Assembly (NCBI RefSeq): GCF_000196795.1
Contig: NC_014259.1
Coordinates: 4,027,178-4,059,177 of the forward strand
DNA: 32,000 nucleotides
Reading direction: 5' to 3'
DNA from: Acinetobacter oleivorans DR1
GTDB lineage: Bacteria; Pseudomonadota; Gammaproteobacteria; Pseudomonadales; Moraxellaceae
This document shows, piece after piece, positions 4,252 to 18,032 of the stretch. The translations under genes and the position numbers were made by a program. The notes beneath the pieces are model-generated. The model saw only the letters and a list, made by a program, of their open reading frames with translations, was not told where the DNA came from and searched no databases. How positions within the stretch are numbered: position 1 is the first letter of the stretch; each line of letters opens with the position of its first letter.

Positions 4252-4740
4252 CTATTGGAAATTGGATTTTCTTATAGCTTCTTTTGATATTAAAATATTA
4301 TCTGCTATAACTTTACTACTTTGTAATAAGCTTCCAAAAACTACTCTACAAGACATATTGCTAGTTAACAATTTTTCCAATTGATTCTTATCGATACATA
4401 CATTCATGGATTCATCTTCGCAGACTTTGAAGTACCCAGATGAAGTATATTTTCCATTTTTTAACTTCTCTCCCTCGACTGAGATAGCTCCTGTCACAAA
4501 GTAATTTTTAATATTATTGCACTTAAAATGTGAATATTTATAATTATTCTCTTGATAAATCTTATTTAAATCATCATTTGTTTCTAAATTAAATTTAAAA
4601 ATATCACCACTCATACCATCCATATAAGAATAAGTTAAATTCTTAAGGGCTATATCCTTAAAATTTTCTTTCTCATTTTTGGCTAAAGGATTACAACCTG
4701 ACAATAAAATGGATAAAATAATTAAAAAATATTTATGCAT
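4252..4740 (-). CDS. Four-Cys lipoprotein (paralog A), unknown function, possible orphan immunity protein
   Basis: Lipobox LSGC. VCEDESMNVC...SCRVVFGS aligns with FCSNNDNRSC...ECQAIFSA of the 3833..4243 product. Confidence 0.6.
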   Translation of the reverse strand: MHKYFLIILSILLSGCNPLAKNEKENFKDIALKNLTYSYMDGMSGDIFKFNLETNDDLNKIYQENNYKYSHFKCNNIKNYFVTGAISVEGEKLKNGKYTSSGYFKVCEDESMNVCIDKNQLEKLLTSNMSCRVVFGSLLQSSKVIADNILISKEAIRKSNFQ

Positions 4741-7054: not shown

Positions 7055-9835
7055 TTACTCTATATCAATTTTTTCATCTTTAAATAAATGAAGTGATATC
7101 TCTTCTGGTTGGTAGGATTTAAATAGATCTGTATATCCTTTATCATCCGTACAACCTTCTACAATATCCCCATTAGGTAAGAAAGCGATATATTTATGAT
7201 TTGCAAAGTTATTGCCATCTTTATCTTGCAAAAAATATCTCAAGTTATATTTATTAATTTCGCCTAATACTGGCAATGCAGGAACATTAGCATTCGTACT
7301 CCCGCCCCCCATAAACAAATGCTGCCCAGCTTTTACCTCAAACTTACCACCTGTGGTCATAAAAATGCCCGAACCAGTAATTTTGACTTGAGAGCCGCCT
7401 GCGGTGAGTACAATTTCTTTGGCTGCGGTCGCTTCGATTTTGTCTTCAGTAGAAATCACCTGAACAGCTTTACGGGCAATTAAATCTGCTCCATCGCCTT
7501 GTGCTTGTATCTCAACTTTACCTTTGCCTGCATAGAGTCTTGCCCCTTCTTGCGCTGAAAAAAGGCTAATTTTATTTTGAGCATGTGCAATCAAGTTCTT
7601 TTGTGTAGACAGATTAATGCTGTCTCCAGCAGTTTGGTTTATCTGGCCATCTGCGCTTAAGTGAATGTCTTCGTTACTGCTCAGCGCGATGCTATTTGGG
7701 CTCGCTAACAACATAATCGCCTCTTTAAAGGTTTTGGCTTTTGCGTTGTCTTGCTGCTCAAGTTTTTCAATAAAGGATTTTAGGTTTTCTAAATTTTCTA
7801 AAGGGTCAGTTTGCTGATTTTTAGCAACTTCACTGAGTGCTTTGGCATTGTTAAGGCCACCGTCGATTTGTTGTTTGGCCTCATTTGCATCAAGGTGTAC
7901 ACCTTGAGCTTGATCCTGCTTGTGAGTACTAACAAGTAGCCCACTGCCCGCACGTACCGCGCCCCACTGGTCTGTTCTAAGTTCGAAGCCTTCACCACGA
8001 CCATCGCTTTCCGCCTTGTCTTTTGGATGGCTTAAGTTACCCAAGTTTAGTTGGCTTGCCGCATGACTGCTTTGTAGCTGGGCACTGATTTGCCCTGTGG
8101 TGTCATCAAAGCGTAGCTGGTTAAAGCCTTTACCGTCGACTTCTTCTGAGCGAATGCCGCTGAGCTTTTTGGTGTCGGGTAGCTGGCCTTTCTGGTCGAA
8201 CTGGGTTGGGTGACGTTCGGCTTCGTGAATGCGGCCGACCACAAACGGGCGGTCAATATTGCCGTCAAAGAAGTCGATCACCACAATCTCCCCCACACGT
8301 GGCAAGAAGCGCGCGCCATAACCCGCGCCTGCCCACGGGGTCAGCACATCTACCCAAGCCGAGTCAGTGTCATTGTCGTTACTGCCCGCTCCACCGTCAT
8401 GATTATGGTCGTCAGTTCGGGTAAACAAGAAGCGGACTTTAATGCGGCCCCACTGGTCAACGTGGATGCTTTCGCCTTCTAGCCCCACCACTCTAGCACG
8501 CTGCGGGTAAGCGGCCGGTCGGTGTTCTAGTGGGCTATATTCAGGCACAGCTTTAATGTTGCGTCGAACCACATTGAGTTCAGCAAAGTGGCGTTGTTCT
8601 GGGTTTTGGCTATCGAGTTGAGCTGCTTTGAGCTTGTCTTTTGGCAACAGACGCTCAAGTTGCTGTTGTAATTCTTTCGGTAAATTATTCTGGTTATAGT
8701 AGTGCTTGCTTAAGATTAAGAATTCTTTATCGGCACTGTCGTGTTGGTCGAGTTCTGGATGGTCATTGAGCTCAAACCAGTAACCTACTTGTGCATCACG
8801 GACGTTACCTGAAACCGTAAACTGTTTCGAACTTAGGTGATGATAAGCATTGATGTGCTGGTTAAGCTGTTCAATCTGGCTATTACCTGAAGCTGTGGCT
8901 TGGTCTTCGCCGTTTAAGTCTTGCATCCAAGCGGGGCTGACATGCCATGCATCTTCAAGGTTTAGGCTGGCATTGTCATAGTGTTCGCTGTGTTGCTGCT
9001 TACCTTGTACGCTGCCACTGCCTTCTTCTTGTTGTAGGGCATCGGCTTGCCAGCGTTGCACATGAACCGAGGTTGGCTGTAAACGGCGCTCTGCCTTGAC
9101 TTGGATAATGGTGTCGAACTGTTCTGTCGCACTGCTGCGCTGGTAACGTAGGCTATGGCGTTCAAGGGCTTGATAATTTTGGTTATCGTCAATTAAACGT
9201 AGCACTTGTGGTTGAATGGAAGCATTCGGGTCAGCGACCAAAAGTTGCGATTCATCGACCAGCCAGTTGATGCCCTCGCTACGCCACAAACGGGTTAAAA
9301 AGTCATAATCGCTTTCGTTTGACTGCATCACAAATGGGCGCACATCGTAGTCTTTAGTTAAGCCTGCTGTGTCGAGCGTCAGACTTGAGGCAAATAACGG
9401 GCTTTTGCCTTGCCATTCTTTAAACAGAATTTCGCTAATATCACGCACGCTTTTGTTCATAAACACGCGGCTATTACGACGTTTATGCCAAAGTGCAGTT
9501 GGATCTTTTAAGGTTAAGTTATAAATGGTGAGTGAGCCGTCGCTTTGGCCTTGGCTCGCTTCGGTAATAATACCTGTTGTTCTAAAAAACTGGCCTGCAT
9601 CCGTCACCTGATCGACAGCAACCTGACAGCCAATAAATTGTTTTAATGCAATATGCGCGTTTGTCGACAGACACAGTAACTCAGCAACGCTACCTTGGTT
9701 GAGGGTATGTTCACCCTCAATGCGTTGCAAGAAAACTTGCTGATTTAAAGACTGATTTGAGAATTGGATATGAACAGCGCGATTTTGTGAAACAAGGCCT
9801 AAACGCTCCAATATACTCGACACACTCATCTGCAT
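7055..9835 (-). CDS. vgrG: Type VI secretion spike protein VgrG
   Basis: A product of about 926-930 aa with a gp27/gp5-like core (WAGAGYGARFLPRVGEIVVIDFFDGNIDRPFVVGRIH) and a repetitive beta-helix C-terminal half. The start is ambiguous among TTG 9847, ATG 9835 and ATG 9829. Confidence 0.9.
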   Translation of the reverse strand: MQMSVSSILERLGLVSQNRAVHIQFSNQSLNQQVFLQRIEGEHTLNQGSVAELLCLSTNAHIALKQFIGCQVAVDQVTDAGQFFRTTGIITEASQGQSDGSLTIYNLTLKDPTALWHKRRNSRVFMNKSVRDISEILFKEWQGKSPLFASSLTLDTAGLTKDYDVRPFVMQSNESDYDFLTRLWRSEGINWLVDESQLLVADPNASIQPQVLRLIDDNQNYQALERHSLRYQRSSATEQFDTIIQVKAERRLQPTSVHVQRWQADALQQEEGSGSVQGKQQHSEHYDNASLNLEDAWHVSPAWMQDLNGEDQATASGNSQIEQLNQHINAYHHLSSKQFTVSGNVRDAQVGYWFELNDHPELDQHDSADKEFLILSKHYYNQNNLPKELQQQLERLLPKDKLKAAQLDSQNPEQRHFAELNVVRRNIKAVPEYSPLEHRPAAYPQRARVVGLEGESIHVDQWGRIKVRFLFTRTDDHNHDGGAGSNDNDTDSAWVDVLTPWAGAGYGARFLPRVGEIVVIDFFDGNIDRPFVVGRIHEAERHPTQFDQKGQLPDTKKLSGIRSEEVDGKGFNQLRFDDTTGQISAQLQSSHAASQLNLGNLSHPKDKAESDGRGEGFELRTDQWGAVRAGSGLLVSTHKQDQAQGVHLDANEAKQQIDGGLNNAKALSEVAKNQQTDPLENLENLKSFIEKLEQQDNAKAKTFKEAIMLLASPNSIALSSNEDIHLSADGQINQTAGDSINLSTQKNLIAHAQNKISLFSAQEGARLYAGKGKVEIQAQGDGADLIARKAVQVISTEDKIEATAAKEIVLTAGGSQVKITGSGIFMTTGGKFEVKAGQHLFMGGGSTNANVPALPVLGEINKYNLRYFLQDKDGNNFANHKYIAFLPNGDIVEGCTDDKGYTDLFKSYQPEEISLHLFKDEKIDIE

Positions 9836-10096
9836 TTTTATTATCAATCAAACTTATATTTAGGCCGCATTTTAATTAAAAAAAGACTAATCTGTCTATC
9901 TATACTCATTTTCAAAATGTAACTAGTCTAAATATGCAGTTTTAGGTTAATTTCTTATTAGATAGGTATTTAATCCGTAAAATTTACTCATTTTAAAGTG
10001 CTATAAACCACCCAAAAATATTTAATATTTTTCTTTTATATTCAAATAGATATTAAATAAATCAACTACTCAAATTAATAAAATTCAGGATGAGAT

Positions 10097-10999: not shown

Positions 11000-11227
11000 G
11001 CTGGCCTACATTGCCAGTCGGTTATGACAGACCGCGAATAACAAAGACGATGTGCAAAATTCTTATTTTGTGTGTCGGGAACTCGTTCGCCCCCTTTTTC
11101 TCTATGGTAGGGCGGAAGGGGGACACCTTTGTGTGTGCTGGTTCCTTTGTTTCCAGTCTGTCAACCCTCTTTCGTTCTACCACCATAAATTAATTCGCGG
11201 TAATCTGGTGGTAGGACTCCATTTTTT
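11000..11227 (+). ncRNA. Candidate structured non-coding RNA of about 230 nt; family unknown
   Basis: A GC-normal island between very AT-rich flanks. It has a 5' hairpin (CTGGC-ctacatt-GCCAG). Long-range pairing joins GACAGAC...AACAAAG (about 11026-11046) with CTTTGTT...GTCTGTC (about 11145-11162). Internal hairpins include CAAAAT/ATTTTG and CCCCCTT/AAGGGGG. A 3' hairpin pairs CTACCACCA (11177..11185) with TGGTGGTAG (11206..11214), followed by T6 at 11222..11227. The overlapping track ORFs lack ribosome-binding sites. Confidence 0.4.
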
Positions 11228-12007: not shown

Positions 12008-12358
12008 ATGAGTTTTTATACAGAACTACAAGTCCGTTATACAGATTTTGACACGATTGATTTATCTACTGAAAAGCAAAAAATTCTAGAAATATTAACT
12101 ATGTTAGCTGAAGGTGCAACTCATGAGGATCTCTATAATGACTTAGTGAGTGCCTTTGCTAATGGACAGGCTGACCTTAATATTGACCCTATTTATTGCG
12201 AAATAATAATAGAAAAAATTACCGCCCTATTTCCACATGCAAATTTTGAATGTCGAGGGTTAGGAGAAGAGTATTTTTATACATGGATTCTTTGTGTTGA
12301 AAATGGGCAGATTATTTTTAGCAGCAAGCCTTGGGAAACTGAAAATCCTTTTATATAA
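12008..12358 (+). CDS. Acidic cytoplasmic protein of unknown function (116 aa)
   Basis: Intact ORF from the track. It has no signal peptide and I recognise no motif. Confidence 0.45.
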   Translation: MSFYTELQVRYTDFDTIDLSTEKQKILEILTMLAEGATHEDLYNDLVSAFANGQADLNIDPIYCEIIIEKITALFPHANFECRGLGEEYFYTWILCVENGQIIFSSKPWETENPFI

Positions 12359-12383
12359 GAATAATCATACGTTCATATTGTTT

Positions 12384-12451
12384 TGTACGTTTTAACCTAC
12401 AAACTTTTAGGGATTTTGCGGATTGGCGATACCCTGCTTTTTTCCTATGAT
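12384..12451 (+). promoter_or_regulatory. GacA-box-like palindrome plus sigma70 promoter of Rsm-like sRNA copy 1
   Basis: TGTACG-TTTTAA-CCTACA at 12384..12401, to be compared with the GacA/UvrY box TGTAAG-N6-CTTACA. The -35 TTGGCG is at 12423..12428, followed by a 17-nt spacer and the -10 TATGAT at 12446..12451. Confidence 0.55.
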
Positions 12452-12457
12452 GAGTTC

Positions 12458-12587
12458 ATACAGGAACAGGATGTTCCGGAACACAAAACAACAATAATAG
12501 GTTCATGCACTAGGAGCGTGAGATACGACAGGAGTCATATCTAGCAACCAAATACGAAAAAGCCCAACAGGATGTTGGGCTTTTTTT
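12458..12587 (+). ncRNA. CsrA/RsmA-sponge-like sRNA, copy 1 (about 130 nt)
   Basis: There are six GGA motifs. Hairpin loops display AGGAU (stem GGAAC/GTTCC, 12463..12477) and AGGA (stem AGATA-c-GAC / GTC-a-TATCT, 12521..12542). The terminator loop also displays AGGAU (stem GCCCAAC/GTTGGGC, 12562..12580), followed by T7. Confidence 0.6.
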
Positions 12588-12620
12588 ATTGCTATTTAAA
12601 AATAATCTGAAAGAAAATTC

Positions 12621-13130
12621 TTATAGTGTTTTATTCACAACATACCTTTGAACTACTTGATCGGCATCAATTTCGGAATGAAGACGGCCATTGTTTGCTT
12701 GAATTACTTTTGCGGACGCTAAATTAGATTTATAACAATGTATATGTAATTCCGTTAGGCCTAACTTCCATGCCTCCTGAATCGTAAGCTCTAATAATTT
12801 TGAACCAAAATCATTTCTACGTTTAGAGGGGCGAATACCTAGACCAATATGCCCACCACAATATTGAATCTGTTTATTAAGTTTAGGTCGTAAGTTAGAT
12901 ACACCAATAATTTCACTGCCTTCTACTAACCAATATGTAATATTGGCAACATGTTCTTCCTGTAAAGATTCCCCATTTTCATACTCTCTTAGTTTATTCA
13001 AAAACGAATCAAAATTTGTATGATCAAAATCCATTGTCAAAGGGTAACGTTCTTCATCTGCTAATTCATTAATATAGTTGTTATAGCTCTCTTTAAACCT
13101 CAAATGAGGTTTTACCAACATAACGGTCAT
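12621..13130 (-). CDS. GNAT-family N-acetyltransferase
   Basis: Acetyl-CoA-binding-like core IGLGIRPSKRRNDFGSKLLELTIQEAWKLGL and a typical GNAT length (169 aa). Confidence 0.75.
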   Translation of the reverse strand: MTVMLVKPHLRFKESYNNYINELADEERYPLTMDFDHTNFDSFLNKLREYENGESLQEEHVANITYWLVEGSEIIGVSNLRPKLNKQIQYCGGHIGLGIRPSKRRNDFGSKLLELTIQEAWKLGLTELHIHCYKSNLASAKVIQANNGRLHSEIDADQVVQRYVVNKTL

Positions 13131-13302
13131 TTATTGATTACTCCCGATAAAATTGTTCTTTTTACAACCAAACTTAAACATAACATATTGTTATCAATAG
13201 CAACTCTTATTCTTCTCAACATCTTAAATGATCAGGTATAAAAGTAAGCCCCCCTCTATTCACACCCGTTGTAACTACAAAATGTCTCACACCATGTTTC
13301 AA

Positions 13303-13370
13303 TGTACGTTTTAACCTACAAACTTTTAGGGATTTTGCGGATTGGCGACACTCTGCTTGTTTACTATTAT
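13303..13370 (+). promoter_or_regulatory. GacA-box-like palindrome plus sigma70 promoter of Rsm-like sRNA copy 2
   Basis: TGTACG-TTTTAA-CCTACA at 13303..13320. TTGGCG at 13342..13347, a 17-nt spacer, then TATTAT at 13365..13370. Confidence 0.55.
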
Positions 13371-13376
13371 GAGCTC

Positions 13377-13506
13377 ATACAGGAACAGGATGTTCCAGAA
13401 CATAAAACAACAATAATAGGTTCAAGCACCAGGAGCGTGAGATACGACAGGAGTCATATCTAGTACCCAAATACGAAAAAGCCCAACAGGATGTTGGGCT
13501 TTTTTT
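13377..13506 (+). ncRNA. CsrA/RsmA-sponge-like sRNA, copy 2 (about 130 nt)
   Basis: Same architecture as copy 1, with five GGA motifs (CCGGA has become CCAGA). Terminator stem at 13481..13499, followed by T7. Confidence 0.6.
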
Positions 13507-13537
13507 ATGGTCATTTAAAAATGATATTAAAGCTAAC

Positions 13538-14113
13538 CTATAGCGGACTATGTGCCTGTTCTTGCTTTTTATGACGTATCCAACGTATTGCCAAAATAAC
13601 AGCAATAACCACCACAATCGCAACAAGCGCAGGAACTAACAAAGCTGAAACCGAAAGTAAGATTGCCCCAATCCACTCCCCTGTAGCAACAACAAAATTT
13701 CCTAAACCGCCTGTGGTTGCAGTTGAAACACCACGTGCAGCGACTGTACTCATTTGCACCACACCTGCCGTACCACCGCCCACAATAATCGCTGCCGCCC
13801 AACCTGCGAACTGTGACATTTCACCACTACTCACGGCCATGGTCGTTAACGTACCTGCGATCATGGCCGCAGGAGTCGCGACTGTGTCTAAGGCATTATC
13901 GACCCAAGGAATATAATAAGCGGCAACTTCACAGACTGTTGCCACAGCTAAAGCCAAGCAAACCGATGGCAGAGCTAACCATTCAAAACCCTTCGATGGC
14001 TCAAACCATCCCATCATTGTTGCAATGCTCATGACCAACAATGGCACAAACACCCGAAAACCGCAGGCAGCGCTCAGCCCCACGCCAATACATAAACCTA
14101 ATATAGTTTCCAT
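13538..14113 (-). CDS. DUF4126-like integral membrane protein
   Basis: Gly/Ala-rich polytopic membrane protein with GFRVFVPLL near the N-terminus. I prefer the start at ATG 14113 (METILGL), which has AAGGAA 6 nt upstream, over the track start at 14137. Confidence 0.65.
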   Translation of the reverse strand: METILGLCIGVGLSAACGFRVFVPLLVMSIATMMGWFEPSKGFEWLALPSVCLALAVATVCEVAAYYIPWVDNALDTVATPAAMIAGTLTTMAVSSGEMSQFAGWAAAIIVGGGTAGVVQMSTVAARGVSTATTGGLGNFVVATGEWIGAILLSVSALLVPALVAIVVVIAVILAIRWIRHKKQEQAHSPL

Positions 14114-14174
14114 AACGGTTTCCTTTTTCATGCCCATCGCGGGTCTTGTTATGTAAGTCTTATTTTAAACTAAC

Positions 14175-14204
14175 AAAAAGCCCCATCGGGTGACAGGGCT
14201 TTTT
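14175..14204 (-). terminator. Probable bidirectional terminator between the zinc-ribbon gene and the DUF4126 gene
   Basis: AAAAAGCCCC-atcgggtgac-AGGGCTTTTT: a short GC stem flanked by an A-run and a T-run. The stem is weak. Confidence 0.4.
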
Positions 14205-14235
14205 GTTAAATGCGAACGCAAATATTATTTTATTC

Positions 14236-14370
14236 TTAACGTTTAAACTCAGTGCAATAGCATTTAGTGCATGGTGGTAAACGATCTGTATTAATTTCTA
14301 AAAACACTCTCTGGCCACATTGAGCGCAGAAATAGAAGCCTGTTCCGGGTTTTTCGCCAGCTGTTACCAT
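14236..14370 (-). CDS. Small zinc-ribbon protein (44 aa), not in the ORF track
   Basis: Manual translation gives MVTAGEKPGTGFYFCAQCGQRVFLEINTDRLPPCTKCYCTEFKR. It has two CxxC knuckles, and AGGAA lies 8 nt upstream of the ATG. Confidence 0.55.
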   Translation of the reverse strand: MVTAGEKPGTGFYFCAQCGQRVFLEINTDRLPPCTKCYCTEFKR

Positions 14371-14406
14371 GATTGCATTCCTATAATCGTATAGATATTA
14401 AACAGG

Positions 14407-14434
14407 AATATAACCCACTTAAAGTGAATGTCAA
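14407..14434 (-). promoter_or_regulatory. Candidate sigma70 promoter for the zinc-ribbon gene (TTGACA-16 nt-TATATT on the minus strand)
   Basis: The reverse complement of 14429..14434 is TTGACA, and the reverse complement of 14407..14412 is TATATT. Confidence 0.4.
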
Positions 14435-14482
14435 TTGTCCATTTCGCCCGATGATGATGGCATAAATGCAAAAAATGTTATT

Positions 14483-14550
14483 TGTACGATTTATCTTACA
14501 AACTTTTAGGGATTTTGCGGATTGGCGACACCTTTCTTTTTTCCTAAGAT
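14483..14550 (+). promoter_or_regulatory. GacA-box-like palindrome plus sigma70 promoter of Rsm-like sRNA copy 3
   Basis: TGTACG-ATTTAT-CTTACA at 14483..14500; the right half matches the canonical CTTACA exactly. TTGGCG at 14522..14527, a 17-nt spacer, then TAAGAT at 14545..14550. Confidence 0.55.
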
Positions 14551-14556
14551 GAGTTC

Positions 14557-14685
14557 ATACAGGAACAGGATGTTCCGGAACACAAAACAACAATAATAGG
14601 TTCATGCATCAGGACGTGAGATACGACAGGAGTCATATCTAGCAACCAAATACGAAAAAGCCCGACAGGATGTCGGGCTTTTTTT
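14557..14685 (+). ncRNA. CsrA/RsmA-sponge-like sRNA, copy 3 (about 129 nt)
   Basis: Six GGA motifs. The terminator stem GCCCGAC/GTCGGGC (14660..14678) carries a compensatory A>G / T>C pair relative to copies 1 and 2. It is followed by T7. Confidence 0.6.
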
Positions 14686-14691
14686 ATATTC

Positions 14692-15207
14692 TTATTTTTC
14701 TGCTAAATAACTTCTTACACGTGCATCATTGAGTAAAGTCATTACCCCTTCTGCAATACATCCATTTAAATCTTGTACTAACACACCACTCGTATGAGGA
14801 ACGGTAAATGGAATAGTTTGTCCATTTCCTAAAGTCGCTTCGAATTTAATTTTACTGCGCCAGAAAAGCAGATTGGTGTAGGTACTACGTAATGAATTTA
14901 CTTTAATCGCAATCGATTTCGATCCATTACCATCAACAGGTTGACCATTTTTCAATAGTTCCTTTTGAGTCTGTTGTACCATCGTTTCTGTAATAGACTT
15001 AATACTAGAGTCCAGTTTTGTGCCCATATAAGAATATACAATCACTCGTTCATCTGAAGTTTGAGCATTGGTCACATCTGCCTTACCAATAACCTTCACA
15101 GGTTGAATTAAACCTGCACGTAGAGGGTACTCTGTACTTACGTAAGGCATTGTCCCACAAGCAGTTAATATAAGAGAGCAAATTGAAATAATGAATAAGT
15201 TACGCAT
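14692..15207 (-). CDS. Lipoprotein of unknown function (171 aa)
   Basis: Signal peptide with lipobox (LILTAC). Confidence 0.6.
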   Translation of the reverse strand: MRNLFIISICSLILTACGTMPYVSTEYPLRAGLIQPVKVIGKADVTNAQTSDERVIVYSYMGTKLDSSIKSITETMVQQTQKELLKNGQPVDGNGSKSIAIKVNSLRSTYTNLLFWRSKIKFEATLGNGQTIPFTVPHTSGVLVQDLNGCIAEGVMTLLNDARVRSYLAEK

Positions 15208-15425: not shown

Positions 15426-18032
15426 TCAAGCCACTTGGCTTTCTAAAAAGTCTTGTGCAAAACGCTGTAATACACCGCCCGCTTCATATACAGAAACTTC
15501 TTCTTCTGTATCTAAACGGCAAGTCACTGGCACTTCAAGAATCTCTTCTTTACCATCCGCTGTGGCACGTTCAATCACTAAGGTTAAAGTCGAACGTGGC
15601 GCAATATTACCAATCACACTATAAAGCTCAGTACCATCTAGTTTTAAAGTCTTGCGGTTTACACCCGGTTTAAACTCAAGCGGTAACACACCCATACCTA
15701 CTAAGTTGGTACGGTGAATACGCTCAAAACCTTCTGCCACAATCGCTTCAACACCTGCAAGGCGCACACCTTTTGCAGCCCAGTCACGGCTTGAACCCTG
15801 ACCGTAGTCAGCACCCGCAACAATAATTAATGGCTGTTTACGGTTCATGTAGGTTTCAATCGCTTCCCACATACGCATCACTTCGCCTTCTGGCTCTACA
15901 CGCGCTTTTGAACCTTGCTTAATGGTACCGTCTGAGCGCACTACCATTTCGTTATACAGTTTCGGGTTGGCAAATGTTGCACGTTGTGCAGTCAAATGGT
16001 CGCCACGGTGCGTTGCATATGAGTTGAAGTCTTCTTCTGGTAAGCCCATTTTGTGAAGGTATTCACCCGCAGCCGAGTCCATCAAAATCGCGTTTGAAGG
16101 CGACAAGTGGTCGGTGGTGATGTTGTCACCCAAAATCGCAAGTGGACGCATGTTCGCCAAAGTACGTGGTGCAGCCAACGCCCCTTCCCAATATGGTGGA
16201 CGGCGGATGTAAGTACTTTGTGGACGCCAGTCGTAAAGTGGACTTTCAGCTTCTTCCGTTACACCTAAGTCAAACATTGGAATGTAGACTTTACGGAACT
16301 GTTCAGGCTTCACAGCTTCTTTAACTAACGCATCAATTTCAGCATCAGATGGCCAAATGTCTTTGAGGTAAATCGGTTTACCGTCTTTGTCATGACCTAA
16401 AGCATCTTTTTCAATATCAAAACGAATCGTACCCGCAATTGCATACGCCACGACAAGCGGTGGAGATGCCAAGAATGCTTGTTTTGCATATGGATGGATA
16501 CGGCCATCGAAGTTACGGTTACCAGAGAGTACTGCTGTTGCGTACAAGTCACGGTCAATAATTTCTTGTTGAATAACTGGATCTAACGCGCCTGACATAC
16601 CATTACAGGTCGTACAAGCGTAAGCCACAATACCAAAACCAAGTTGCTCTAAGTCTTTTAGAACACCTGCTTCTTCAAGGTAAAGTGCAGCCGCTTTTGA
16701 ACCCGGTGCAAATGATGATTTCACCCAAGGTTTACGAACCAAACCAAGTTCATTTGCCTTACGTGCCAACAAACCTGCCGCCACGGTGTTACGTGGGTTA
16801 GAAGTGTTAGTACATGAAGTGATTGCAGCAATAATGATTGCGCCATCTGGCATTAAGCCGTCAGAACGGTTTTCGACAACACCCGCAATACCTTTTTCTT
16901 TTAGGTCCGCAGTTGAAACACGTGCATGTGGGTTTGATGGACCAGCGATGTTACGTGTCACTTTTGATAGGTCAAAACGAAGTACACGTGGGTACTCTGC
17001 TTTGGTCATGTCAGATGCCCAAAGACCGATTTCTTTTGCGTACTGTTCAACCAATGCCACTTGAGCATCTTCACGGCCTGTTAGGCGTAAGTAATCGATT
17101 GTGTTTTGGTCGATGTAGAACATCGCAGCAGTAGCACCATACTCTGGTGTCATGTTCGAAATGGTTGCACGGTCGCCCACAGACATGCTGTCTGCACCTT
17201 CACCAAAGAACTCAAGGTAAGCACCAACCACACGCTCTTTACGCAAGAACTCGGTTAAAGCAAGTACGATATCTGTTGCAGTAATGCCTGCCTGACGCTG
17301 ACCTACAAACTCAACGCCAATAATGTCTGGCAAACGCATCCAAGATGCACGGCCTAACATTACGTTTTCAGCTTCTAAACCACCTACACCCACAGAAATT
17401 ACGCCCAAAGCGTCTGTATGTGGTGTGTGTGAGTCTGTACCGACACATGTGTCTGGGAATGCTACGCCATCACGCGCCTGAATCACCGGAGACATTTTCT
17501 CTAGGTTAATCTGGTGCATAATGCCGTTCCCCGCAGGGATCACATCGACATTTTTAAATGCTGTTTTAGTCCACTCAATAAAGTGAAAACGGTCTTCGTT
17601 ACGGCGGTCTTCAACAGCACGGTTTTTTGCAAAAGCGTCTGGGTCAGCACCACCGTATTCCACCGCTAAAGAGTGGTCGACAATGAGCTGTGTCGGTACA
17701 ACTGGGTTAACTTTAGATGGGTCGCCGCCTTTGTCAGCAATCGCATCACGTAAGCCTGCAAGGTCAACCAATGCAGTTTGACCCAAAATGTCATGACACA
17801 CCACACGCGCTGGGTACCAAGGAAAGTCCAAGTCCTGACGGCGTTCAATCAACTGCGTTAAATAGGCAGTTAAGTTCTCGGCATCGGCACGGCGTACCAA
17901 TTGCTCTGCGAGTACTTTAGACGTGTAAGGCAGTTTTTCGTATGCGCCTGGCTGAATATCTTCAACGGCTTGACGCACGTCGTAATATTCAAGCTGGGTA
18001 CCTGCCAGCGGTTTACGGTATTTTGTGTTCAT
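15426..18032 (-). CDS. acnD: Fe/S-dependent 2-methylcitrate dehydratase, aconitase family (AcnD type)
   Basis: 868 aa. The N-terminus [48 protein letters not shown] is AcnD-like as I recall it. Aconitase cluster-ligand regions are present (TDSHT, CTTCNG). Its ATG overlaps the prpC stop (TAATG). Confidence 0.85.
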   Translation of the reverse strand: MNTKYRKPLAGTQLEYYDVRQAVEDIQPGAYEKLPYTSKVLAEQLVRRADAENLTAYLTQLIERRQDLDFPWYPARVVCHDILGQTALVDLAGLRDAIADKGGDPSKVNPVVPTQLIVDHSLAVEYGGADPDAFAKNRAVEDRRNEDRFHFIEWTKTAFKNVDVIPAGNGIMHQINLEKMSPVIQARDGVAFPDTCVGTDSHTPHTDALGVISVGVGGLEAENVMLGRASWMRLPDIIGVEFVGQRQAGITATDIVLALTEFLRKERVVGAYLEFFGEGADSMSVGDRATISNMTPEYGATAAMFYIDQNTIDYLRLTGREDAQVALVEQYAKEIGLWASDMTKAEYPRVLRFDLSKVTRNIAGPSNPHARVSTADLKEKGIAGVVENRSDGLMPDGAIIIAAITSCTNTSNPRNTVAAGLLARKANELGLVRKPWVKSSFAPGSKAAALYLEEAGVLKDLEQLGFGIVAYACTTCNGMSGALDPVIQQEIIDRDLYATAVLSGNRNFDGRIHPYAKQAFLASPPLVVAYAIAGTIRFDIEKDALGHDKDGKPIYLKDIWPSDAEIDALVKEAVKPEQFRKVYIPMFDLGVTEEAESPLYDWRPQSTYIRRPPYWEGALAAPRTLANMRPLAILGDNITTDHLSPSNAILMDSAAGEYLHKMGLPEEDFNSYATHRGDHLTAQRATFANPKLYNEMVVRSDGTIKQGSKARVEPEGEVMRMWEAIETYMNRKQPLIIVAGADYGQGSSRDWAAKGVRLAGVEAIVAEGFERIHRTNLVGMGVLPLEFKPGVNRKTLKLDGTELYSVIGNIAPRSTLTLVIERATADGKEEILEVPVTCRLDTEEEVSVYEAGGVLQRFAQDFLESQVA

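Follow-up and report, generated by a model that had tools for sequence, protein, structure and literature searches.

Three paralogous small RNA genes between vgrG and acnD of Acinetobacter oleivorans DR1 belong to a genus-wide family with a probable role in Gac/Csr regulation

What is encoded by three near-identical intergenic repeats that lie between the genes vgrG and acnD of Acinetobacter oleivorans DR1? The repeats are found in a stretch of 32,000 nucleotides (contig NC_014259.1, positions 4,027,178 to 4,059,177), which is the whole of the DNA analysed here and is called the window; all positions count from its first letter. An earlier note on this DNA had read the repeats as genes for small RNAs (sRNAs) of the Gac/Csr (Rsm) type, whose transcription is activated by GacA and whose products act as sponges for the regulator CsrA. 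We find that the window holds three old paralogs of a genus-wide Acinetobacter sRNA family. Their most likely role, judged from their anatomy, is that of Gac-activated, CsrA-titrating RNAs of the size of RsmX, RsmY and RsmZ, and we hold this role to be moderately probable. The features of the three units are the following, all on the plus strand.

12384..12587, +, unit 1: box, promoter, 130-nt sRNA and terminator (repeats, alignment, covariance model, synteny and spacing)
12384..12401, +, 18-bp palindrome TGTACGTTTTAACCTACA of copy 1, a GacA-type box centred at -65.5 (pattern scan, genus-wide conservation)
12423..12451, +, sigma-70-like promoter TTGGCG-17 nt-TATGAT with predicted start at A 12458 (promoter scan)
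12458..12587, +, predicted 130-nt RNA of copy 1 with 6 GGA motifs (fold, GGA count, covariance model)
12463..12477, +, hairpin 1, GGAAC-AGGAU-GUUCC, with GGA in the loop (fold)
12483..12499, +, unpaired A-rich tract ACAAAACAACAAUAAUA of AAN repeats in copy 1, a candidate Hfq distal-face site or seed (fold)
12521..12542, +, hairpin 2, AGAUA-c-GAC-AGGA-GUC-a-UAUCU, with an AGGA loop (fold)
12556..12587, +, intrinsic terminator with loop CAGGAUG and U7 tail (terminator scan)
13303..13506, +, unit 2: box 13303-13320, -35 element 13342-13347, -10 element 13365-13370, RNA 13377-13506
14483..14685, +, unit 3: box 14483-14500, -35 element 14522-14527, -10 element 14545-14550, RNA 14557-14685

A repeat search of the window groups 12384-12613, 13303-13532 and 14483-14712 as one family of three direct repeats. 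Aligned from the start of the palindrome through the T-run, the three units, of about 204 bp each, have pairwise identities of 88-94%; homology among them is confined to the part from the box to the T7 run and ends just after it. The covariance model of the family (R1) finds exactly three copies in the window with 158-160 bits (160.5 bits for copy 1). Each RNA of 129-130 nt contains 5-6 GGA motifs (five AGGA), compared to a window mean of 0.9 GGA per 130 nt. The predicted folds of -35 to -39 kcal/mol (z-scores of -5.1 to -5.8) consist of three hairpins, in whose loops three GGA motifs are displayed, while the remaining GGA motifs are unpaired. A T7 tail is present at the 3' end of all three copies. 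The terminator scan detects the strong intrinsic terminators of copies 1 and 3, and the terminator sequence of copy 2 is the same as that of copy 1; in the terminator stem of copy 3, the alignment reveals a compensatory change from A-U to G-C.

The palindrome TGTACGTTTTAACCTACA of copy 1 is found again in copy 2. Copy 3 carries TGTACGATTTATCTTACA, which matches the GacA/UvrY-type sequence TGTAAG-N6-CTTACA at 11 of 12 positions; among the boxes of the window the match is 10-11 of 12. When the pattern TGTAMG-N6-CKYACA is searched with at most one mismatch, it occurs within the 32 kb only at the three units, with 6 strand-hits against 1.06 expected, a number that none of 100 shuffles reaches. Downstream of the box, the promoter scan detects TTGGCG-17 nt-TATGAT and TTGGCG-17 nt-TATTAT, and the TAAGAT of copy 3 was read directly in the sequence. 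The predicted starts at 12458, 13377 and 14557 each lie 65.5 bp downstream of the box centre. The main structural claims of the earlier note, namely three near-identical units in the same register, a GacA-like palindrome about 65 bp ahead of a sigma70-type start, three GGA-loop hairpins among 5-6 GGA motifs and a U7 tail, are all borne out by these searches.

The same promoter layout extends over the genus. In every member of the family the palindrome is fixed in position with its centre 65.5 bp ahead of the predicted start, and the -10 hexamer and a TCATAC start region are conserved. The -35 element is not conserved, and a variable -35 element is usual for activator-dependent promoters. In A. 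baylyi and A. rudis the box is a perfect palindrome, TGTACG-N6-CGTACA in the former and TGTGCGCTTAAGCGCACA in the latter, and a dispersed paralog between yggS and sbcC has the textbook GacA/UvrY box TGTAAGCGATTTCTTACA (TGTAAG-N6-CTTACA). A further motif, TTTGCGG, is located between the box and the -10 element at 12419-12425 and in the same register in copies 2 and 3. It is conserved genus-wide, is retained even where the -35 hexamer is lost, and could be the site of a second regulator or part of the activator-dependent promoter.

How widely is the family distributed, and how old are its copies? A collection of species-representative genomes was searched with an exact 18-mer from hairpin 1, which gives about 35 Acinetobacter or Moraxellaceae loci that carry the family; a second search with covariance model R1 added copies without the exact 18-mer. 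Members are found in species of the A. calcoaceticus-baumannii (ACB) complex, in A. baylyi, A. lwoffii, A. rudis, A. kookii and A. pecorum, and in others. At this locus, species of the ACB complex carry clusters of two to four copies (for example the loci that we label L017, L051, L071 and L081), and degenerate relic copies stand beside acnD fragments in L081 (4373-4485) and L071 (2891-3003). In A. baylyi, three copies adjoin acnD, while A. lwoffii, A. rudis, A. kookii, A. pecorum and several others have single copies at other locations. The syntenic loci of two non-ACB Acinetobacter lineages, recognized by a DUF4126 protein of 79-81% identity, contain neither a copy nor a box. The position of the cluster is therefore not genus-wide, the A. 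baylyi copies next to acnD notwithstanding.

In a neighbour-joining tree, the copies cluster by position and not by species. The clade of the third copy (c3) is common to all ACB-complex species and includes an A. baylyi copy, and unit 3 belongs to the oldest positional lineage. Local homogenisation is seen in A. calcoaceticus DSM 30006 and between c1 and c2 of A. baumannii. From the grouping by position together with the local homogenisation, we conclude that the paralogs are old, maintained and occasionally gene-converted. Compared with window positions 12384-13506, a metagenomic relative (L003 1845-2044) lacks one sRNA copy as well as the GNAT gene, and has a 7-nt deletion in the A-rich tract; recombination between copies 1 and 2 would account for the loss.

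Conservation follows the secondary structure of the RNA. Among 37 distinct RNAs, 97.3% of the cells are paired in the three-hairpin structure, compared to 35-52% when the partners are slid by 1-3 columns. Compensatory changes are observed at five of the eight pairs of hairpin 2 and at three of the 12 pairs of the terminator stem, and RNAalifold, run unguided, recovers hairpin 1, the outer stem of hairpin 2 and the terminator. Hairpin 1 is invariant in this set because it was the search pattern; in plasmid copies, which were found independently by BLAST, it covaries from A-U to G-C. In 21 diverse copies the loop GGA of hairpin 1 never changes, and the AGGA(U) bases of the loops in general vary little or not at all, those of the terminator loop included. 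That loops are conserved within covarying stems, even in a terminator, argues that they are read by a protein. The well-conserved GGA sites are spaced 18-44 nt apart. The AAN tract AAAACAACAAUAAUA is unpaired in all folds and nearly invariant in chromosomal copies genus-wide, and is shortened in several plasmid copies; it may have a role in Hfq binding.

The family is not restricted to chromosomes. A BLAST search of one unit against PLSDB matched 416 records, 396 of them from Acinetobacter. A few of these are A. baumannii chromosomes filed as plasmids, with five matching places each, and the remaining ones are true plasmids with sizes of about 6 to 220 kb, hosted by A. baumannii, A. pittii, A. 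junii, A. johnsonii, A. towneri, A. lwoffii, A. indicus, A. radioresistens and A. haemolyticus. Under the listed plasmid matches there is no annotation except one 'hypothetical protein'. Ten plasmid copies were fetched.

L115, 6075-6192, plasmid copy
L116, 4060-4184, plasmid copy
L117, 1578-1696, plasmid copy
L118, 1577-1697, plasmid copy
L119, 1573-1696, plasmid copy
L120, 1573-1702, plasmid copy
L121, 1576-1699, plasmid copy
L122, 1578-1708, plasmid copy
L123, 324-446, plasmid copy
L124, 1519-1643, plasmid copy

These copies score 83-126 bits with the covariance model. All ten have a box of TGTACG-N6 joined to CGTACA, CGCACA or CTCACA at approximately the same distance from the RNA start, and in all ten the -10 hexamer is intact and hairpin 1 has its AGGA loop. 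Eight copies also display AGGA in the loop of hairpin 2, and the copies of A. haemolyticus plasmid p3 and of pAB120 have lost it; the terminator loop CAGGAUG is present in nine, and the p3 copy reads CAAGAUG. For many of the ten, a type II toxin-antitoxin operon follows shortly downstream in the same orientation. The distance is about 65-80 nt to RelE/ParE-helix-turn-helix operons on pAB120 (which also carries OXA-72), p2UC24371, pM164-3.2 and pIC001A (L117, L118, L119, L122), and about 90-145 nt to VapBC on pALWED3.2 and pARA4 (L123, L124). In L115, NadS/RelE is on the strand opposite to the sRNA gene. This arrangement suggests that sRNA gene and toxin-antitoxin operon travel as one module on plasmids.

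Two dispersed chromosomal members (L125 2471-2667 and L126 2444-2646) stand on contigs deposited as 'Acinetobacter phage MD-2021a', records that look like bacterial genome contigs under a phage name. One of the two is the paralog between yggS and sbcC with the exact box, and the other adjoins a tRNA-Thr gene. Chromosomes carry up to five or six family genes, three to four of them in the vgrG-acnD cluster with its variable copy number. RsmQ of Pseudomonas plasmid pQBR103 is reported to be a plasmid regulator that hijacks the Gac-Rsm pathway (PMC9928087). The Acinetobacter plasmid RNAs would resemble RsmQ in being a component of a Csr/Rsm circuit on a mobile element; RsmQ differs in that it is a CsrA-family protein and not a sponge RNA. 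It is a speculative and rather doubtful thought that the family forms a second, mobile class of RNAs with Gac box and GGA loops apart from CsrB, through which plasmids would plug into the Gac signal of the host and titrate CsrA, perhaps also Hfq, shifting host metabolism or virulence state to their own benefit.

Whether the loci are already catalogued was left open in the earlier note. They are, as numbered sRNAs of A. baumannii only, and the transcripts are not new. In the AB5075 annotation, sRNA76 (2,687,479-2,687,624) and sRNA75 (2,686,559-2,686,770) are on the minus strand, and ABUWs050 and ABUWs049 (Weiss 2016) are at the same places. The 3'-ends of sRNA76 and sRNA75 are 920 bp apart, compared to 919 bp between window copies 1 and 2, and the 212-nt annotation of sRNA75 equals the length of one whole unit. 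Judged by synteny and spacing, copy 1 would be the positional ortholog of sRNA76/ABUWs050 and copy 2 that of sRNA75/ABUWs049; for the third copy, no number was found in those portions of the AB5075 annotation tables that were available. Published lengths of the sRNA75/76 family are 146, 160, 212 and 214 nt, in contrast to the 130 nt predicted for the window RNAs. Group 6 of Weiss 2016 contains ABUWs050, ABUWs049 and ABUWs032 (sRNA40), which share long U stretches and a hairpin in which one pair is compensatory, a description that fits the family terminator; by its grouping with ABUWs050, sRNA40 is a further family member. Group III of Kroger 2018 possibly corresponds to this family. With about 45,000 transcripts per million, sRNA76 is among the most abundant transcripts, and RNA sequencing coverage and Northern blots of sRNAs 75-77, among others, are given in Figure 3 of Kroger 2018 (PMC6182133). 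In the literature that we found, no function is assigned to sRNA76 or sRNA75, and the family 18-mer does not occur in the paper texts or the Hamrock supplements.

RNAs of comparable design are known from other gammaproteobacteria. RsmX, RsmY and RsmZ have about 115-130 nt and 5-8 GGA motifs, display GGA in hairpin loops, are preceded by an 18-bp GacA/UvrY box and occur as several redundant paralogs per genome. CAGGAUG, found here in the terminator loop, is the repeat unit of E. coli CsrB. Boxes of this type and spacing upstream of GGA-rich sRNAs are a hallmark of GacA/UvrY/VarA targets in gammaproteobacteria. The window RNAs share the size class of RsmX/Y/Z, and with these and the enterobacterial CsrB/CsrC the loop GGA, the box and the presence of several paralogs. 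They differ from them in that homology of sequence or structure is not detectable (no Rfam match at E<=10), in the mostly used half-site TGTACG, in the clustering of three to four copies within 2-4 kb and in the conserved AAN tract. Kulkarni et al. 2006 (PMC1488887) listed criteria (i)-(v) for CsrA-regulating sRNAs, with a GacA-type upstream site among them. The window units agree with all of these: they are intergenic, dense in AGGA/ARGGA, end in a Rho-independent terminator, have GGA in loops or unpaired and are preceded by an 18-bp site of the GacA/UvrY type.

The closest comparison is offered by A. baumannii itself, for which three CsrA sponges, CsrB, CsrC and CsrD, are credited to Singh et al. 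2025 (PMC13516227; PMC13643297). CsrB is enriched in quantitative PCR after RNA immunoprecipitation of CsrA (PMC13643297). A supplement of an Hfq RIL-seq study (RNA interaction by ligation and sequencing) labels sRNA97 (AB5075 3,495,826-3,495,969) as csrB, which is ABUWs074 of Weiss 2016. With a 20-mer derived from the Weiss 2016 Northern probe for ABUWs074, we retrieved the CsrB locus from metagenome contigs. It is found at L114 4196-4443 (gene 4270-4443), flanked by an Exo_endo_phos gene and the gene of a GltP-type symporter; the rsmY prediction for ADP1 by Kulkarni 2006 has this context. Our first assumption, that the three copies are the published CsrB together with CsrC and CsrD, is rejected for CsrB, since csrB is sRNA97 at 3.496 Mb and a different RNA.

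The box of CsrB, TGTAAGCAATAACGTACA, joins both half-site variants (TGTAAG-N6-CGTACA) and is centred at -65.5, the same spacing as in the window units. CsrB contains 8 GGA in 174 nt, and as in the window RNAs, GGA is displayed in hairpin loops including the terminator loop (GCAGGACGC). In alignment, the body of the CsrB RNA has no sequence similarity to the family, and the likeness is limited to the box and the promoter layout. Covariance model R1 has no match at the CsrB gene, and in other parts of the CsrB loci L111-L114 its matches are weak (27-31 bits). For CsrB there are CsrA-binding data (PMC13643297), whereas the cluster RNAs are putative sponges. The shared design of CsrB is the strongest argument that the window RNAs are in the same regulon and work alike.

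From the anatomy, the conservation, the covariation and the CsrB-like promoter architecture, we infer binding by GacA and CsrA and the consequences of both. Each unit would be a gene in its own right, with an RNA product of about 130 nt. A response regulator of the NarL/FixJ type, most likely GacA, would bind the 18-bp palindrome at -65.5 and activate a promoter that has a good -10 element and a weak or variable -35 element. The RNA is predicted to display GGA in three hairpin loops, including that of the terminator (CAGGAUG or ACAGGAG), and one or two more GGA unpaired. It would bind CsrA dimers and keep CsrA off its mRNA targets, similar to RsmX/Y/Z of Pseudomonas and CsrB of A. baumannii, and the several copies, long kept and occasionally gene-converted, may raise or diversify the titrating capacity. 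The AAN tract and the U-tail probably seat the RNA also on Hfq. The genetic background is present: Acinetobacter has gacS, gacA and csrA, and genetics tie loss of GacA to CsrA (PMC12455638; bioRxiv 2021.08.11.455981).

A number of observations weigh against this role. The earlier note had proposed a comparison with the Rfam Rsm/Csr models; CsrB (RF00018), CsrC, RsmX, RsmY and PrrB_RsmZ have no match in the whole window at the gathering threshold, nor in 12300-14800 at E<=10, and the sole Rfam match in these searches is a C4 antisense RNA at 11100-11187. This negative result weighs little because A. baumannii CsrB has no Rfam match either, and we conclude that current Rfam families do not include the Csr sRNAs of Acinetobacter. 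The well-conserved GGA sites number only 3-4, and the GGA of hairpin 2 is missing in a subset of species. The RIL-seq data set renames sRNA97 as csrB and leaves sRNA76 and sRNA40 numbered, which suggests that the trio of CsrB, CsrC and CsrD may not include these two and that CsrC and CsrD may be other genes. In the literature that we found, neither binding to CsrA nor dependence on GacA is reported for sRNA75, sRNA76 or the family RNAs. The half-site TGTACG, the commonest form in the family, is one position off TGTAAG, and a regulator other than GacA may act at such a box. Moreover, in Hi-GRIL-seq (high-throughput global sRNA target identification by ligation and sequencing), sRNA76 is part of 30.6% of all chimeras and is called a keystone sRNA, and CsrB is found in none after filtering. 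In Hfq RIL-seq, sRNA76 as RNA1 forms 5,418 chimeras with ABUW_RS11470-3', and enriched chimeras with defined partners are the pattern typical of base-pairing sRNAs. Of the sponge proposal in the earlier note, the sRNA genes, the genus-wide box, the CsrB-like layout and the covarying stems with AGGA loops stand; a match to Rfam Csr/Rsm models is not obtained, the named CsrB is a different locus, and the ortholog sRNA76 is an Hfq-associated interaction hub, which points to an added or alternative mechanism absent from the note.

These interactome data raise the question whether the main function of the RNAs is Hfq-dependent base pairing, as regulators or as sponges. In that case they would be loaded on Hfq through the AAN tract and the U-tail, the unpaired segment would pair with specific RNAs, such as the ABUW_RS11470 3'-end or the ABUW_RS00790 5' untranslated region (UTR), and the GGA loops would be incidental or structural; GacA may still be the upstream regulator. 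In Hfq RIL-seq, sRNA76 as RNA2 has partners in mRNA 5' UTRs or coding sequences with odds ratios of 463 (ABUW_RS00790 5' UTR) and 68, and ABUW_RS11475 is also an enriched partner. ABUW_RS11470-3' is independently the top sRNA76 partner in Hi-GRIL-seq with 1,633 reads. The features of the RNA point in the same direction, since the U7 tail is present on every copy and the unpaired tract AnAAAACAACAAUAAUA is nearly invariant in chromosomal copies. However, very abundant RNAs yield many chimeras, and sRNA76 has more than 200 listed Hi-GRIL-seq partners, which include tRNAs and 6S RNA. RsmY of Pseudomonas binds Hfq as well as RsmA, and CsrB, too, ranks high among the chimeras of Hfq RIL-seq, so that Hfq association is compatible with a Csr role. 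A purely base-pairing function leaves unexplained that AGGA is kept in three loops, the terminator included, while the stems covary, and that the promoter architecture is common to CsrB. In the plasmid copies, the A-rich tract is shortened or changed but the AGGA loops are retained. A base-pairing function, added or alternative, is a serious rival; we regard primary base pairing as rather unlikely, and a Gac-activated, CsrA-titrating RNA that is probably also held by Hfq as the better account.

The palindrome could also be bound by a regulator other than GacA, such as another protein of the LuxR/NarL type or a quorum-sensing protein, which would place the RNAs in a different regulon and make the Csr likeness a convergence. 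The prevalence of TGTACG over TGTAAG would fit, as would the additional TTTGCGG, which is absent from the CsrB promoter. Against this, in the box of A. baumannii CsrB the half-sites TGTAAG and CGTACA are joined at an equal distance from the start, the canonical box is present without deviation in one paralog, copy 3 deviates from it at a single position, and a box of this kind ahead of GGA-rich sRNAs is the general mark of GacA/UvrY/VarA control as well as a criterion in Kulkarni 2006; we take a different regulator to be very improbable. To the idea that the units are short protein-coding genes or remnants of mobile elements and not RNA genes we give hardly any credence. A 53-codon open reading frame (ORF), the sole ORF that overlaps the units, does cover part of copies 1 and 2, and copies occur on plasmids as well as in a chromosomal region that is variable. 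This ORF begins within the palindrome, though, and a 1-nt deletion breaks it in copy 3. With indels of 1, 7 and 11 nt among other family members, a coding function is therefore excluded, and conservation tracks base pairing and not codons. Terminal inverted repeats and a transposase are not found with the units, and homology stops exactly at the box and the T-run.

The surroundings of the units are variable. They lie in a stretch between vgrG of the type VI secretion system (7055-9847) and acnD (15426-18032), interspersed with cargo genes for a GNAT acetyltransferase, a DUF4126 membrane protein, a DUF1451 zinc-ribbon protein and a lipoprotein. The DUF4126 protein of the window is 99-100% identical to A. 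oleivorans, A. pittii or A. calcoaceticus proteins and 94% identical to that of A. baumannii. An A. baumannii contig (L007) has three copies, 89-91% identical to window copy 1, in the same order: acnD ... c3, DUF1451 gene, DUF4126 gene, c2, GNAT gene, c1 ... vgrG. In related loci, the interval contains AbiJ-like, MazE-PIN or AAA_21/DUF4435 genes, depending on the species (L067 5265-6101, L009 2959-3608, L014 1994-3595). Because the cargo genes differ among species, the interval looks like a defence or accessory hot spot.

Two further elements of the window are worth recording. The C4 antisense RNA (Rfam RF01695, 72 bits, plus strand) is located about 1.2 kb upstream of copy 1 and is one of the multi-copy C4-like sRNAs (Group 1/Group I) known from A. 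baumannii. Between the DUF4126 and zinc-ribbon genes, the hairpin AAAAAGCCCCATCGGGTGACAGGGCTTTTT at 14168-14204 is about 68-70% identical to the sRNA terminators and has no GGA loop. It is probably the terminator of the minus-strand zinc-ribbon gene (14236-14370), which is directly upstream in the transcriptional sense.

In A. baumannii, CsrA is conditionally essential and controls amino-acid catabolism, desiccation tolerance and the switch between virulent and avirulent states (PMC13643297; PMC13516227). If sRNA76 and its paralogs are Gac-driven antagonists of CsrA, they could represent a large part of the CsrA-titrating capacity of the cell, and the picture of three sponges, CsrB, CsrC and CsrD, would be incomplete. 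This would also give a concrete reason for the dominance of sRNA76 in RNA-RNA interactome maps and would link the Hfq and CsrA networks. Most worth attention are the multi-copy cluster with its variable copy number and the unannotated plasmid relatives. The plasmid copies would provide an unrecognised route by which resistance plasmids, such as the OXA-72 plasmid pAB120, may influence the regulation of their host.

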